Part shown: one piece after another, positions 15,126 to 29,596 of the stretch
How the letters are laid out: the number at the start of each line of letters is the position of its first letter
Position numbering within the stretch: position 1 is the first letter of the stretch
Assembly (NCBI GenBank): GCA_963705505.1
Contig: CAVPJU010000006.1
Location: forward strand, 288,001 to 352,000
Origin: an uncultured bacterium
Lineage (GTDB): Bacteria; Desulfobacterota_D; UBA1144; Nemesobacterales; UBA2774
Length of the DNA stretch: 64,000 nucleotides
Reading direction: 5' to 3'
Made by a program: the position numbers and the translations under genes
Notes under the pieces: model-generated
Told to the model about the DNA's origin: nothing
Databases searched by the model: none
Seen by the model: only the letters and a program-made list of their open reading frames with translations

Positions 15126-16004
15126 TCAGCCTCCGAACCTCATCATCATATCCAGAACAAAATCGACGTTCGCGAAATCACTTATCTCATCGCTCCCGAA
15201 AGGTACCTGCACTCCCGCCCCGAAACTGAACATCCGCCCGCCGAACCTCACGCCCGGCGTGACATACGCGCCTGTCACGTTATTATCGAACGACGTTGAC
15301 GACGCCATCAAGAGCTCGACGAGAAACGAAGTGGAGAAGGGGAGGTTAAAATGAGGCGTAACGCTTCCGCTTATACCATATTTGAGAATAAGCTCGGTAT
15401 TATCGCCGCCGGTATCAAAGGGGCTCTCGTCCGCGTGCTTCGCGTTCGTCATAATATCGAAATCAAAATTCGCCTGGAGGGCGAAAACATCGCCGCCTAT
15501 TGCGAATACGCCGTAGGGTACGAATGTATAGGCGTCGTCGGTAAAGTAAGCGAAATCACGGAAATAGGATCGCGCGCCCAGCGCCCCTAAATTATTTCCG
15601 GTCGTCGGCAGGAGGACCTCAAAGCCGAGCGTGAACGCCGAGTTGTTGGAGCTCACGAGGGCATACTTCGTTCCGAGTCCGATATTCCCGAAGTCATAAT
15701 CGCCGTTTCCGAACACCCCGCTCGTCACGCCTGAAAAGGGGAACTTCGCATATATCCCGAAATAGTTATCGGATAAATTCAGGTCCGCTCTCAGCTGATT
15801 CATAATGAGCGCTCCCCCTCCGTCAACTGACGCGATTTCGAGATTCCCCCTCACTCCCGTCACGCTGTAGGGGTGTTCGAGGAAAAACGAGTAGGGGATT
15901 CCGCTGCTCGCCGCGCTTGCTCTATTTATAGGTGTGATTAGAATTGAAGATAATATGCAGATGGATAAAATCAGAGTCGAAATTGACACCTTCACCGTCC
16001 TCAT
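15126..16004 (-). CDS. Putative outer-membrane beta-barrel protein
   Basis: Signal peptide, alternating hydrophobic strands, FGNIGLGTKY...LLPT pattern, near-terminal Phe. Confidence 0.65.
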   Translation of the reverse strand: MRTVKVSISTLILSICILSSILITPINRASAASSGIPYSFFLEHPYSVTGVRGNLEIASVDGGGALIMNQLRADLNLSDNYFGIYAKFPFSGVTSGVFGNGDYDFGNIGLGTKYALVSSNNSAFTLGFEVLLPTTGNNLGALGARSYFRDFAYFTDDAYTFVPYGVFAIGGDVFALQANFDFDIMTNAKHADESPFDTGGDNTELILKYGISGSVTPHFNLPFSTSFLVELLMASSTSFDNNVTGAYVTPGVRFGGRMFSFGAGVQVPFGSDEISDFANVDFVLDMMMRFGG

Positions 16005-24948: not shown

Positions 24949-25898
24949 TTACGGAAGCTTATCACGCTCGAGCGCCTGACGGTCCCACTTTGCGAGATTC
25001 GCAGCCGCCTCATAGGTGCTCTGGAGGAAATCGAGGAGCATAGCGTCAGGCCGACCGGCCTTTCTGACTTCGTCGTACGGAAGGAGGAACTCTCCGAGAT
25101 CGGTGTTGTAGAATAGCGCCTGACGGCTTCACAGGGGCGTCCTTAAACCCCTCGGGCGCGGGGTATGCATAGGCGTAGAACACCGGATAGGGCACAGGGC
25201 CGCCGCCCGGCCAGAACCCGCAGCTGCTCACCTCGTGAGAGTAGGCTTCCCGCGCGACGACGTCGGGAAGGTGCGGCACGCCGCCCGGATGCGGAGGAGC
25301 GGTCCGCCCGGAAAACCGCGTCACTGCCATGTCGAAGCTACCCCAGAAGAAATGCACCGGGCTGCACTTGCCGATGAACCGCGCGCGGAACTCCTTGAAC
25401 ACGCGGTCTGTCTGGACGAGGATACGCCAGAAACGGTTGGCGTAGTCAGGGTCGTAAGAAGCGTGCTGCTCGTCTTTCTCGAACGGAACAGGGTCGGCGA
25501 CCTCATTCGGAAGTGTGTGGATGTGAATGTCCAGACCGAGCTCCCGGAGTTTAGCCATGACCTCCCTGTAGAAATCCGCGACCGAGCGCGGACTTGAGGT
25601 CGATAAGCCGAACATCACCATCGCTCGTCTCGATCACAAGCTTATGGTCTATAAAATCGAAATCGATCTGGAAGGTCCTTTCACCGTAAGGAATGGGGGA
25701 AGTCGTTAACCCCCGGCAGGTGACATACAGTGTCACGTGCCATGAATGGTTGATCCAGGGGGTCAGAGCGAACCTGACCTTGCCTACGATCTGAGTCCAC
25801 ATGTGGAGGGTCGCATATGTGTCCTTCCACTCCTCAAGCGGCAGACTCGGCCATGCTTCCCTTTTGTCGCTGCTCTTTGAACGGTCCGAAGACGACAT
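24949..25898 (-). pseudogene. DUF5996 family protein with two +1 frameshifts (real or assembly error)
   Basis: WKDTYATLHMWTQIVGK, SPVHFFWGSFDMAVTRFSGR, GEFLLPYDEVR...LQSTYEAAA. Extra bases near 25592 and 25114; 950 nt = 316 codons + 2. Confidence 0.8.
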
Positions 25899-26068: not shown

Positions 26069-26503
26069 CTAATCGCCTAACTTCTTAACAGGGGCTTCGA
26101 CTTTGATATCCCCCGCGTTTTCGAACTTAAGATCGAGCTCGATCTTATCCTTATCCGTGACCGGTTCTTTTAAGTCCATCAGCATGACGTGAGTCCCGCC
26201 CGGCTTGAGCTCGACGCTTTTCCCGGCGGGGATAACGAGCGCATCGACCATATTCATATTGGCGACACCCTCATTGTCGATGACGGTCTGATGGATCATG
26301 GTGCTTCCTGAAATGCTGCTCGTAACGCTGAGCAGCTTGTCGTCTGCATTCCCTTCATTCGTAATAGTCATGTAAGCAGCGGCGACCGGCGACGAAGGCG
26401 GGACCTTCCCTATCCATGCATCCTTCACCACGATCTTGCTCTGGCCGAAGGACAATTGAGTCAGCACAAATAAAACCGCGAGCGAAAACAGATACTTTTT
26501 CAT
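26069..26503 (-). CDS. Copper chaperone PCu(A)C
   Basis: Signal peptide; AAYMTI and H..M..ELKPGGTHVMLM copper motif. Confidence 0.92.
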   Translation of the reverse strand: MKKYLFSLAVLFVLTQLSFGQSKIVVKDAWIGKVPPSSPVAAAYMTITNEGNADDKLLSVTSSISGSTMIHQTVIDNEGVANMNMVDALVIPAGKSVELKPGGTHVMLMDLKEPVTDKDKIELDLKFENAGDIKVEAPVKKLGD

Positions 26504-26600: not shown

Positions 26601-27594
26601 TCATTTCCCGACGCTATGCACGTGCTCATGCCCGGCGTGAGAAAGATGTTTCGCCGGCATATTGTGAAGAAGAAGCGCCGTGCATACCAGAAGCGCTGCG
26701 ATAAGAACCGCCTCCGCCCCGACCTTACGTATGAGCCCGGTAACCGTCGCGCCGTTCTCCTCCCGGGAGCCCGTGGACCGGGTAATTCGCGGAATGCTGA
26801 TGTAGCGGTTCGATGCGGCGAGTATAACGAGCACAGCGAGGAGCATTATCTTAAGTAGAATGATTTTACCGTAAGCGGTCTCCCGGAGGGCGCGGAAACT
26901 CCCTACCTCGGTCCATCCGTTGTATGCGGCGGTTATTACAATAGCGAAGAGCGCAACGCCCGCAAGACCGGAGAACCGGACGGCAATGTCCGCGATATAC
27001 TTACGGCGCTCTCCCGGGAGCCGGAATATCGACGGGAAAACGGCCAGGGAAAGCGTAATGAGACCTCCTCCCCATATTGACGCAGCCATCAGATGAAGCC
27101 AATCCGAAATCTCAGGCAGGCTGAAATCCCCCGCGTCTGCCGCATGCCCCGAAGCGCTGCGGGTGGCCGCTATCACCGCTGCAGCAATAAACATGCAAAT
27201 CGAATACCGGCGTGCGTACAGGTCCCTCCCGCCGACCAGCCACGCTGCGCATAATACAGGCGACGGCGGCTATGCGTATCAGCCACACCCGACCATAATG
27301 GGTTTTGAACAGGACCGTCGGCACAAGAGATAAACCGGCCGCCAAAGGGAGTCCGCTCATCTCGGCTGTACGTGTGAGGAGAAGAACGGAGCTGCTCAAA
27401 ACAAGCATTGCAGCCGTGAGGCCGATCAGCTTCCACACATTAGCCAGGAGCAGCCCCTCGTCCCGCTTGTCCGAGATGCTGCCGGTCACATGCAGTACCC
27501 ATATTCGGCAGGAAAGAGCACCGATGCAGGCGGTCAGGGCCAATAGGTCGAATAATGTCGGGGCGCTGTGTCCGAATTTATCCAGGATCATCAT
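26601..27594 (-). pseudogene. copD: CopD family inner-membrane copper protein with one +1 frameshift near 27251 (real or assembly error)
   Basis: THYGRVWLIR, SGHAAD, DWLHLMAASIWGGGL, TAYGKIILLK and a His-rich tail; 994 nt = 331 codons + 1. Confidence 0.82.
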
Positions 27595-27600
27595 ATCCTC

Positions 27601-27969
27601 TTATTTTACCGTGAACGTATAGCTCCCCTCGGTACGATGACCGTCCCTCGAGACAGCGGTCCAGATAACCCTGTAGATACCCGCGGGAAGCGGAGGCAGG
27701 TCCACCTCAAGCAGCTTCGCATCGGATTTGTCAACGTGCCCTTCTCCCTTATCCACCCTCTGCGAATCGGCATTCTCGACCCGAATCTCGCTGAATTCGT
27801 CCTCTAGCTCACTGTCGAACCAGACGCGGGCCTGCGGCGGCGAAGCGCTTATGGTCGATCCCACCCTGGGGTCCGAATGATCGGGGAATGCATGCCCCCA
27901 GGCCGCCATCGTCTGAGCGCCCGCGTATATGAGACCCAACAGTATAAAGACGTTTAATACTTGCCTCAT
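27601..27969 (-). CDS. copC: Periplasmic copper-binding protein CopC
   Basis: Signal peptide, mature N-terminal HAFP, and SRDGH copper motif. Confidence 0.92.
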   Translation of the reverse strand: MRQVLNVFILLGLIYAGAQTMAAWGHAFPDHSDPRVGSTISASPPQARVWFDSELEDEFSEIRVENADSQRVDKGEGHVDKSDAKLLEVDLPPLPAGIYRVIWTAVSRDGHRTEGSYTFTVK

Positions 27970-27982
27970 AGTTCTTGATCTC

Positions 27983-28883
27983 CTATCTGAAAATAGGCCT
28001 CCCGAGACTATCCGGGAAGAGGTCATCGATGAAGACGTGGAAAAGGGCGAGAACCCCGACCCCGTCGCCTGAGTTGTCGTTGATCGGAATTTGGGCCTCG
28101 ATCCCGAGCTGAATATACTTACCGAACCATATAATACCGGGGTTGACGAAGCCCGTCGGTTTCACCGCCGCTGCCCTGATTCAAAGCCGTTTCAAACGGG
28201 AACTCCACGACAAGAATCATCCTGTTAAGCGGCACCGGGAGTCCAACATCCTTCACGAAAGCCTCAAGATACTGAAAACTGTATTGGATGGTAAACCCGT
28301 ATTCAAATACGTCCGGCTCTTCGCTATCGATTGTGAAGGCAGGGCCGATTACGCCGGTAATAGCAAGCGGCCTCAGGAACCTCAGAGTCTCAGGCAGGTC
28401 TCCGAACCCTTTCCCGAAGAATAAGCCGGGAGCGAGTGTCGTGAAATCATCGGCGTCAACGGAGCTATCCCCGGTGTGGCCGATCTCGGCATCCACGCCA
28501 ATCGACATGATAGCCTCGTGTGGGGCGTTCGTAAGGAACTGGTACTTAAGACCCACGCCGAGGTTCGAAAATCCGTGCTGGGTTTTTTCTCCCTTGGCTT
28601 TTATAAACTCGTACGAATCTCCGACCGCTAAACCGAAGTGCGGCGTAATGCGTTTGGAATACTCGACCGACAGCTCGTAATTCTGTGCGTCCTCCTCGTC
28701 CTTCAGATAACCGAAGAGAAACGAAAACTCGTCCGAGACGAACGGGTCTTCAACTGATAATGTGGTGGGGAAAAAACGCTTGCCAGCATATCCGTGCGAC
28801 CAGGACGACGCCGGCATTGAAACTAAAATCAGAACAAAAGCGATTCCGCATAATAGCTGTAATTTATATTTAATATACAACAT
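27983..28883 (-). pseudogene. copCD-associated putative outer-membrane beta-barrel with one +1 frameshift near 28157 (real or assembly error)
   Basis: Signal peptide, then HGYAGKRFFPTTLSVEDPFVSDE and amphipathic strands; C-terminus in the shifted frame ends DDLFPDSLGRPIFR; 901 nt = 300 codons + 1. Confidence 0.72.
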
Positions 28884-28910
28884 AGGACTCCTCCTCTATG
28901 CAATAGATTG

Positions 28911-28942
28911 CAGCCGCGAAAGAGTCTGGCTTTCCGCAGCTG
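28911..28942 (-). promoter_or_regulatory. Stem-loop between the RSPP leader ORF and the copper operon RBS
   Basis: CAGCTGCGGAAAG pairs with CTTTCGCGGCTG; overlaps a second hairpin TGCAAT-CT-ATTGCA next to the GAGGAGG SD. Confidence 0.55.
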
Positions 28943-28973
28943 AATTCTTTTTATATGAAATGAAAAAGTGAGG

Positions 28974-29360
28974 TTAAGAAATTAAGAAAGGAGGGGAACG
29001 GTTGGTGTTGCTTAAGGTAACTAACTCGTATTTTACTTCCCGCTCATAAATACGCAGGAAATTTATATCGGCATTGTATGAAAAAAGATTATTTCCATTA
29101 AGACCGACCAGCTGATGATTATTATTGGAAATAGCGGTCTGATTCAAACTGAATAAAGATTGTTCTCCGGGGTTGCTGCCCCTGCTGGAAAGGCTCGAAC
29201 TGCTCATGCCCTTCAAAACTATAATCGTCCCCATACAGGGCGTGTTTGTAAACTCAATCTTTCCGGATTCGTCATGGGAAACGGAAAAGAGTATAAAAAA
29301 TAGAGCTATTACGGGAACAAGCAGGTATCTGAGGTGTGAATATTCGATATGAGCAGCCAT
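28974..29360 (-). CDS. Putative secreted leader / translation-arrest peptide (C-terminal RSPP)
   Basis: N-terminal hydrophobic segment, Ser/Asn-rich linker, and NRSPPFLIS* end; TTTACA-18 nt-TAATTT promoter 11 nt upstream. Confidence 0.65.
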   Translation of the reverse strand: MAAHIEYSHLRYLLVPVIALFFILFSVSHDESGKIEFTNTPCMGTIIVLKGMSSSSLSSRGSNPGEQSLFSLNQTAISNNNHQLVGLNGNNLFSYNADINFLRIYEREVKYELVTLSNTNRSPPFLIS

Positions 29361-29596
29361 TAATAAGGTTTAAATTACCATGATTTTGAATGGGTTGTAA
29401 AGGGGGGATGAGACCTCCAAACCCCAACCCGTTTGAATATCTTAGCGAATTACTACCCGCAATCAGTATTTGTTCCTGCCTCATTTCGAATCCCAGTGTT
29501 ATATGATCAAGCGCGGATTTGGAGTAAAGAAGGTTATACATTATTAAGGCAATAACCAGTAATGAATGACAGATATGTGAATTGTTATCTCGCGGA

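Follow-up and report, generated by a model that had tools for sequence, protein, structure and literature searches.

A conserved single-cysteine leader with an RxPP tail heads a copper operon and is likely a translation switch

How might a small open reading frame that lacks any Cys pair control the copper genes that follow it? The question is raised by a 128-aa ORF at the head of a barrel-CopC-CopD-PCuAC operon in the window, by which we mean the whole 64,000-nucleotide stretch of DNA analysed here. A sequence-only reading had described an N-terminal hydrophobic segment, a low-complexity linker, the motif RSPP four residues before the stop and a 90-nt gap to the next gene, and translation bears out all of these elements. 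The parts of the leader on which our argument turns are the following.

28974..29360, minus strand: leader ORF, 128 aa (translation, homolog alignment).
29235..29240, minus strand: Pro41-Cys42 codons, the sole conserved candidate ligand, 79 residues ahead of Arg121 (alignment).
28989..29000, minus strand: RSPP codons, predicted stall site (conservation among homologs, and RSPP being partly permissive in ApdA/ApdP, PMC12992588).

The hydrophobic segment covers approximately residues 10-28 (best 15-residue mean hydropathy 2.97) and is a predicted export signal or anchor; set against the lipobox consensus, the Pro ahead of the Cys does not fit. Residues 51-100 are rich in Ser and Asn (11 S and 10 N in 50), C42 is the only Cys, His29 sits just after the hydrophobic segment, RSPP occupies residues 121-124, and the 90-nt gap runs to the barrel ATG at 28883. 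Among 758 small ORFs with a hydrophobic N-terminus in the window's genome, only 2 end in R[SAGD]PP. Neither Pfam nor NCBIfam gave a match to the leader, nor did Rfam to the leader and its flanks. Its nearest clusters in the ESM Atlas are unnamed (0.96), and the nearest named one is CzcI (0.93, 90 of 256 features shared), a likeness that we take as a lead only.

The genes downstream of the leader, all on the same strand, are these.

27983..28883, minus strand: outer-membrane beta-barrel gene of the FapF/COG4313 type, about 299 aa, frameshifted near 28157 (structure model).
27601..27969, minus strand: CopC, no Met-rich segment seen (PF04234, E 7.5e-20).
26601..27594, minus strand: CopD, split by a frameshift near 27259 (PF05425, E 6.2e-19; NF033808 on both halves).
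26069..26503, minus strand: PCuAC copper chaperone (PF04314, E 2.4e-38).
25046..25898, minus strand: DUF5996 gene, frameshifted near 25592 (PF19459 on both halves); it follows PCuAC in relatives, and its co-transcription is putative.

The frameshifts in the barrel, copD and DUF5996 genes are probably assembly errors, because contigs of related strains carry one base fewer at 28157, 27259 and 25592 (at low depth, one or two contigs each) and because the genes are whole in a related genome, G007; intact genes are found in relatives at the barrel/copD loci of G007 and L093. Within the leader ORF the related-strain contigs show no indel. That a frameshift of this kind hides a CxxC in the leader itself is ruled out, since 33 homologs are colinear with it and lack the motif.

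A model of the barrel built from 60 homologs (pLDDT 92.9) is predicted to have 12 strands and resembles FapF (Z 21.8, rmsd 2.6, 221 residues aligned) and the COG4313 channel 4rl8 (Z 20.7, rmsd 2.8, 217 aligned), with a score of 12.6 against PcoB, while a sequence search of the PDB with the barrel profile gave no match; likeness of the modelled fold would by itself show no function. The neighbourhood says more about copper: of the 80 barrel loci that rank best among 393, 77 have CopC no more than 4 kb from the barrel, 59 have CopD and 5 have PCuAC. The operon carries no gene for a multicopper oxidase, an ATPase or an RND protein, and the window's genome has three heme-copper oxidase family genes. 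CopC/CopD alone have been linked to import (PMC8689200; PMC7785015), and the E. coli homologs have been argued to serve delivery rather than import (PMC8689200). One CsoR/RcnR-family match and three MerR-type matches occur elsewhere in the window's genome, and given these, transcriptional copper control is possible as well.

Is the leader conserved, and which parts of it? Word-based sequence searches, together with a profile run over 120 genomes of the class, yielded 33 distinct full-length homologs, some of them near-identical and apparently all from one family (Dadabacteria). The profile found the leader in 13 of the 120 genomes, all of this family and including 7 of the 9 genus-mates; a 14th genome turned up later. 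Across 45 pairs of 10 leader orthologs dN/dS ranges from 0.16 to 0.59 (median 0.32), and on these alignments the ORF is real and under purifying selection. The parts kept among homologs are Pro41-Cys42, an S-L-x-Q-T-A block (71-76) and the last 27 residues, with a 4-residue tail after RSPP. The tail, 3 or 4 residues before the stop, reads RSPP in 12 of the 33 homologs, RAPP in 7 and KSPP in 14. Within the 14 close homologs R, P and P are invariant (14/14) and S and A interchange at the second position. In ApdA and ApdP, RSPP allows partial arrest and the Arg is irreplaceable (PMC12992588), which by analogy would make the KSPP clade either weak or informative.

CxxC is absent from all 33 distinct homologs, and CxxxC likewise, which upholds the description of a cis-acting RxPP-type leader lacking CxxC and placed to control the next gene. 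The distance from the Cys to the Arg or Lys is 79 residues in 31 of the 33 and 78 in the other two. Pro41-Cys42 is invariant in 23/23 aligned rows that span 26-94% identity, and homologs at only 26-33% identity still retain both Cys42 and the 79-residue distance. In the alignment, insertions and deletions are placed ahead of Pro-Cys, which makes the Cys block, and not the membrane segment, the starting point of the spacing ruler. A His/Met ligand set had also been proposed, and this did not survive: position 29 is His in 6 of 18 genus-level rows, position 43 is Met in 8 of 18, and the family alignment holds no conserved His or Met, so that we reject His29 and Met43 as alternative ligands. One Cys without conserved His or Met is, as far as the alignment tells, a poor Cu site.

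Nor does the family resemble the known one by profile. Against PF11162 (DUF2946) the leader gave no match at E<=1, eight homologs none at E<=5, and a KSPP homolog none. In profile-profile comparison the leader family reached a probability of 0.4% against seven DUF2946-like leaders of the same barrel and 1.5% against another leader set of the same barrel, a comparison of low power, in which two positive-class sets match each other only at 0.9%. The available parts of the literature gave no account of this single-Cys family; single-Cys clusters could be present in the HMM logos or neighbour table of PMC9973294 or in the bioRxiv supplements. A term search of the available supplements of PMC9973294 and PMC9426467 returned no Dadabacteria, no mention of the barrel's nearest Pfam family and no glutaredoxin.

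If the leader stalls, how could the stall reach the barrel gene? The features at the RNA level are the following.

28987..28994, minus strand: anti-Shine-Dalgarno, formed by the Pro-Pro codons and the bases after them (MFE fold; 7-pair consensus).
28912..28941, minus strand: G+C-rich intergenic hairpin that would join the anti-SD and the SD, or act as a pause site (fold).
28888..28897, minus strand: Shine-Dalgarno of the barrel gene (sequence; paired with the anti-SD in folds).
28941..29000, minus strand: tract rich in C and poor in G (16 C and 2 G in 60 nt) that spans the stall site and the stop, a possible Rho loading site.

In the minimum-free-energy fold the Pro-Pro codons (28994-28987) pair with the barrel SD (28897-28890) around the hairpin at 28941-28912 (z -2.19), and a consensus of 14 loci retains seven anti-SD/SD pairs, with 95.9% of cells paired. 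This consensus contains no two-sided changes and so no covariation of the stem, both of whose sides are constrained for other reasons. A hairpin stands at the intergenic place in 13 of the 13 loci folded (-6.6 to -19.4 kcal/mol, without a shuffle control). The Pro-Pro pair is written CCT CCT in 13 of 14 loci, as against 5.7% of 1432 Pro-Pro pairs in the window's genome, and the leader's other three conserved prolines are mostly CCC; 10 of 28 four-fold sites in the leader are about as invariant as the Pro codons. When a ribosome footprint is masked at the first Pro, the computed accessibility of the SD rises by at least 0.2 in 11 of the 14 loci and from 0.17 to 0.40 in the window; the other three loci show no shift. 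We also compared tails with 2000 synonymous recodings each at 17 hand-chosen barrel loci (4 of the 14 family loci and 13 other leaders). At 9 of these 17 the tail-SD pairing is better than in 97% of the recodings, several of them from unrelated leader families; at the other 8, the window's own among them (fraction 0.098), the tail is not exceptional, and at the KSPP loci of the sister genus a significant anti-SD at the motif was found in 0 of 5 (fractions 0.08-0.41). All 14 of the loci keep the leader and, between it and the next gene, a gap of 86-91 nt, though that gene is either of two barrels that are 24% identical; at the KSPP loci the gap measures 84-87 nt. C-rich, G-poor sequence is also how rut sites look, and a rho gene is present in the window's genome. 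Rho termination may thus act too; both outputs, Rho and SD masking, would give stall = on.

Upstream, the leader had been credited with a promoter of its own. A consensus promoter scan ahead of the leader start found no site, the conserved block lying below the scan threshold, and to that extent the claim is not borne out; in 11 aligned upstream regions, on the other hand, 17 bases are invariant in the 42 nt before the leader ATG and none in the 78 nt beyond, so that conservation supports a promoter there.

29372..29401, minus strand: promoter-like block read from the invariant columns, with a -35-like TTT[A/G]CA (29401-29396), an 18-nt spacer ending in TG-n and a -10-like hexamer (29377-29372; extended -10-like element 29380-29372); presumptive in function.

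A transcript started from this block would have just a few bases of 5' leader, and no Shine-Dalgarno precedes the leader ATG.

We now turn to what stands behind this leader, and to what other leaders stand before this barrel. In the order, the barrel occurs in 7 of 61 genomes, the window's included, and all seven have an upstream ORF ending in RSPP; an eighth barrel genome (G066) has no leader directly upstream. For a wider survey we took the best 80 of 393 barrel loci in a species collection and dropped 5 with short upstream sequence (4 of the remaining 75 appear to repeat genomes of the order). Upstream of the barrel a hydrophobic ORF with Pro-Pro in its last 15 residues is found at 37 of these 75 loci, compared with 60 of 2467 control windows, and R[SAG]PP, read by eye, in 19 of the barrel leaders. 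The other 38 loci show no such leader; among about 30 loci from Nitrospirota, a single one has it. Pfam's DUF2946 cut-off is passed by 3 of 26 barrel leaders scanned, and 4 more match below it. Because of this survey and these matches, the barrel-copC operon is, to judge by the sequences, commonly headed by classical CxxC leaders. The suggestion that leaders are undescribed for this kind of operon is not supported, since CopC and PCuAC are published neighbours of such leaders (PMC9426467; PMC12992588), three leaders over the same barrel pass as DUF2946, and one source table places RAPP uORFs before CopC-annotated genes in 133 and 75 cases (PMC12992588). Other single-Cys leaders over the barrel (L010, L011, L074) have about 50 residues from Cys to Arg; a search started from L010 returned a single hit.

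The leader family itself precedes several kinds of cargo. It lies over the window-type barrel with CopC/CopD in the window's own genome (G000), in G007 and in L093, and over a second barrel, 24% identical to the window's, in six genus-mates and in G013; PCuAC comes next after the second barrel in the genus-mates and is absent after it in G013. CopC/CopD follow the leader in only 2 of 13 leader-bearing genomes (G000 and G007). In the window's genus every leader locus with downstream sequence has a His-tipped barrel, in most cases followed by PCuAC. In the sister genus the KSPP leader heads a glutaredoxin (PF00462), a genus-specific paralog present in five genomes, and the two sit as a cassette between leuS and thiE, which in the window's genome are direct neighbours; the syntenic PCuAC locus of the sister genus has neither leader nor barrel. 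In a further genus, g2, the second barrel has no such leader.

How does this leader compare with arrest leaders already described? With CruR (Bp2923; DUF2946/PF11162; PMC9426467), for which arrest on RAPP has been shown in vitro (PMC12992588), it shares the position as small first gene of a copper operon, an N-terminal export signal (predicted here), RxPP 3-4 residues before the stop, a fixed Cys-to-motif spacing, a stall predicted to mean on, a C-rich tract after the stall site, and CopC and PCuAC among the published neighbours. The first position in a copper operon holds for the window's leader and not for its sister-genus homologs. CruR carries CxxC, some 45 residues from RAPP (PMC9426467) and about 49 from Cys to Arg, whereas the window's leader has one Cys at 79; CruR matches PF11162 and the window's leader does not; the gap to the next gene is 162 nt in CruR as against 90 nt; CruR acts through Rho, whereas the Pro codons here hold a predicted anti-SD; and the cargo of CruR is a TonB receptor, that of the window's leader a predicted plug-less 12-strand barrel. 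With CutF of Rhodobacter capsulatus and the CutF-like set (PMC9973294; bioRxiv 10.1101/2025.02.05.636593) it has in common a length below 150 aa, Pro-Pro among the last 15 residues, an export signal (a candidate one here), a same-strand neighbour within 100 nt and an SD in a stem that a stalled ribosome would open (predicted here). The rules of that set ask for <150 aa, PP no further than 15 residues from the C-terminus and a neighbour on the same strand at most 1000 nt away, and the leader fits them at 128 aa with PP at 123-124 and a gap of 90 nt. They ask as well for a predicted cleavable Sec or lipoprotein signal peptide, for which the hydrophobic segment is a candidate. The CutF metal motifs (CxxxC, His-rich) are absent from it, in a set that already includes His-only clusters (PMC9973294); CutF has PPP and an anti-SD in the intergenic stem, in place of RxPP and an anti-SD in the stall codons. 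CutF's cargo is a multicopper oxidase and the window's is not, and because of this the sign of the response would probably be opposite to CutF's.

ApdA, ApdP and SecM (PMC12992588, PMC10987492) share a RAPP-like arrest motif, a localisation signal and an SD-sequestering stem (predicted here), and differ in having Sec/YidC genes downstream, whereas the window's leader has none and carries an invariant Cys at a fixed distance. Behind the leader family we found no secA, secDF or yidC, and instead barrels, CopC/CopD/PCuAC or glutaredoxin. The Streptomyces lividans leaders SLIV_16130, SLIV_18480 and SLIV_27375 (PMC12992588) are RAPP/RGPP-type arrest leaders that likewise lack CxxC and precede copper or thioredoxin genes; they carry Cys pairs or clusters of His/Met, with as many as four membrane segments, and are set apart from ours by description only. 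Our analysis of the sequences suggests that the leader probably acts as a switch on translation, of a kind already known for copper sensing, but with one Cys at a fixed and unusually long distance in place of the Cys pair. What sets it apart is the lone Cys, the exact 79-residue tether and the swaps of cargo, in a narrow family.

The mechanism that we propose is as follows. The nascent leader would be targeted to Sec by its N-terminal hydrophobic segment. With no ribosome on the mRNA, the downstream SD is predicted to be held by the Pro-Pro codons across the intergenic hairpin; a ribosome with Pro123 in the P site would cover both these codons and the C-rich tract that may load Rho, and a stall on RSPP would keep the barrel SD open and the operon on. 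At arrest the tunnel would hold some 30-35 residues and the translocon about 17, leaving Cys42 well out in the periplasm; since the tunnel and membrane spans are put at about 30 and 17 residues (PMC9973294), Cys42 would extend past the translocon by some 30 residues. Where CruR and CutF carry their Cys pairs, this leader would by analogy have its conserved 71-76 block. Copper at Cys42, with backbone, nearby acidic residues or a partner protein supplying the other ligands, may change the pull on the chain and end the stall, after which the ribosome would terminate, the anti-SD/SD stem re-form and the uptake genes fall quiet. That the leader stalls, with stalling as the on state, is in our judgement probable from sequence. 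Copper as the signal is something we infer, and the sign rests on the cargo. To the whole chain, in which an exported leader stalls on RSPP and frees the barrel SD while copper at Cys42 releases the stall and turns a copper-acquisition operon off, we give a probability of roughly 45%.

What else could the lone Cys be doing? The same stall-opens-SD switch might serve a Cys42 that reports the thiol or redox state of the periplasm, or its oxidative-folding capacity, by a Dsb-type mixed disulfide or by oxidation, and not copper. An invariant Cys without conserved co-ligands would suit such a role, as would the 79-residue ruler ahead of the glutaredoxin paralog in the leuS-thiE cassette of five sister-genus genomes, and RAPP uORFs are enriched before DsbA and thioredoxin genes (PMC12992588). 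However, glutaredoxin is cytoplasmic and copper stress could also explain it, the window's genus has a His-tipped barrel at every locus with downstream sequence, mostly with PCuAC next, and these same barrels also have multi-Cys and CxxC leaders in that slot; we think this alternative unlikely. A broader proposal is that the arrest leader reads periplasmic thiol chemistry through one Cys on its fixed 79-residue tether, either as a disulfide with an oxidative-folding enzyme or as Cu shared with a partner, and is a portable module set before two metal-type barrels, a CopC-CopD cassette and a glutaredoxin. This too we hold to be doubtful; if true, it would be the first arrest peptide with a covalent or partner-bridged pull instead of metal binding within the chain.

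It is also conceivable that copper is the signal and that the sign is that of CutF, copper prolonging the stall so that the operon is copper-induced for sequestration or tolerance. The SD-masking stem and the periplasmic topology match CutF (PMC9973294), RSPP as a weak arrest motif may need a ligand to hold, and a glutaredoxin cargo fits a stress response; yet an operon that lacks multicopper oxidase, ATPase and RND genes and brings an outer-membrane channel together with CopC, CopD and PCuAC suits uptake and delivery, which makes this reading unlikely. A pure monitor of secretion or translation like SecM and ApdP, in which Sec pulling releases the stall and the Cys is structural, would account for an export signal joined to an RxPP tail, as in ApdA/ApdP, and for the exported cargo of the window's genus. 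Such a monitor is quite improbable given that no sec or yidC gene lies downstream, that the constant spacing is measured from the Cys instead of the hydrophobic segment, and that the cargo of the sister genus is cytoplasmic. Finally, the leader might be a decayed one, its second Cys gone, that through translational coupling now only fixes expression at a constitutive level, in line with the absence of CxxC in 33/33, with KSPP in 14/33 and with homologous barrels that are leaderless in many genomes; Cys42 and the 79-residue distance kept to 26-33% identity, and a dN/dS of about 0.3, render decay very improbable indeed.

Returning to the reading that we prefer, in which copper at Cys42 releases the stall, the interest of the family lies in a comparison. 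CruR and CutF have opposite signs and Cys pairs about 45 residues from the stall; a family with one Cys at 79, with RSPP, RAPP and KSPP tails and with swaps of cargo offers a comparative set on how a metal acts on the stalled nascent chain, in which ligand identity, tether length and tail strength can be related to signal and sign. Moreover, the leader lends weight to the view that CopC/CopD copper uptake has its outer-membrane step in this unnamed barrel of the FapF/COG4313 type. The importance is limited in that the principle is known, the family is narrow and the organism is apparently known only from metagenome-assembled genomes.

A number of observations at other loci may be recorded here. 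The KSPP single-Cys leader with its glutaredoxin paralog after leuS is found at L108:5610-6515, L109:5571-6354 and L152:979-1797. KSPP recurs in an unrelated leader, a multi-Cys one upstream of the second barrel at L126 (G036). A CxxC leader family with a tail of the S-P-P-x-P-P-P-R type lies over the same barrel at Verrucomicrobial loci and one Dormiibacterota locus (L044, L049, L052, L057, L058, L060, L061, L065-L067, L070, L076, L080-L082, L084, L087-L089), and the two of these leaders tested against Pfam gave no match. At L146 and L147 (G029 and G020) a PCuAC copy near 1420-1875, in the orientation of the locus, belongs to a syntenic typA-DUF938-DUF5996 locus and, read by eye, appears to be without the His/Met copper ligands; a second copy lies beside a Sco-like gene. 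The window's genome has a second small ORF with a hydrophobic start and an RSPP ending, at G000:C10:418403-418828 on the plus strand (L112:3404-3829; L140), conserved in G006 and G007 (3 of 33 genomes), with His and no Cys after the hydrophobic segment; it stands behind exbB/exbD/tonB-like genes, named by eye, and ahead of a small exported protein, and its Ser-Pro-Pro codons complement the next SD in G000 and G007, again by eye. Lastly, the minus strand at 15126-16004 of the window, beside thiE, encodes a third small exported protein that is barrel-like; it has an N-terminal motif with His and shares 70% identity with a protein of G020.
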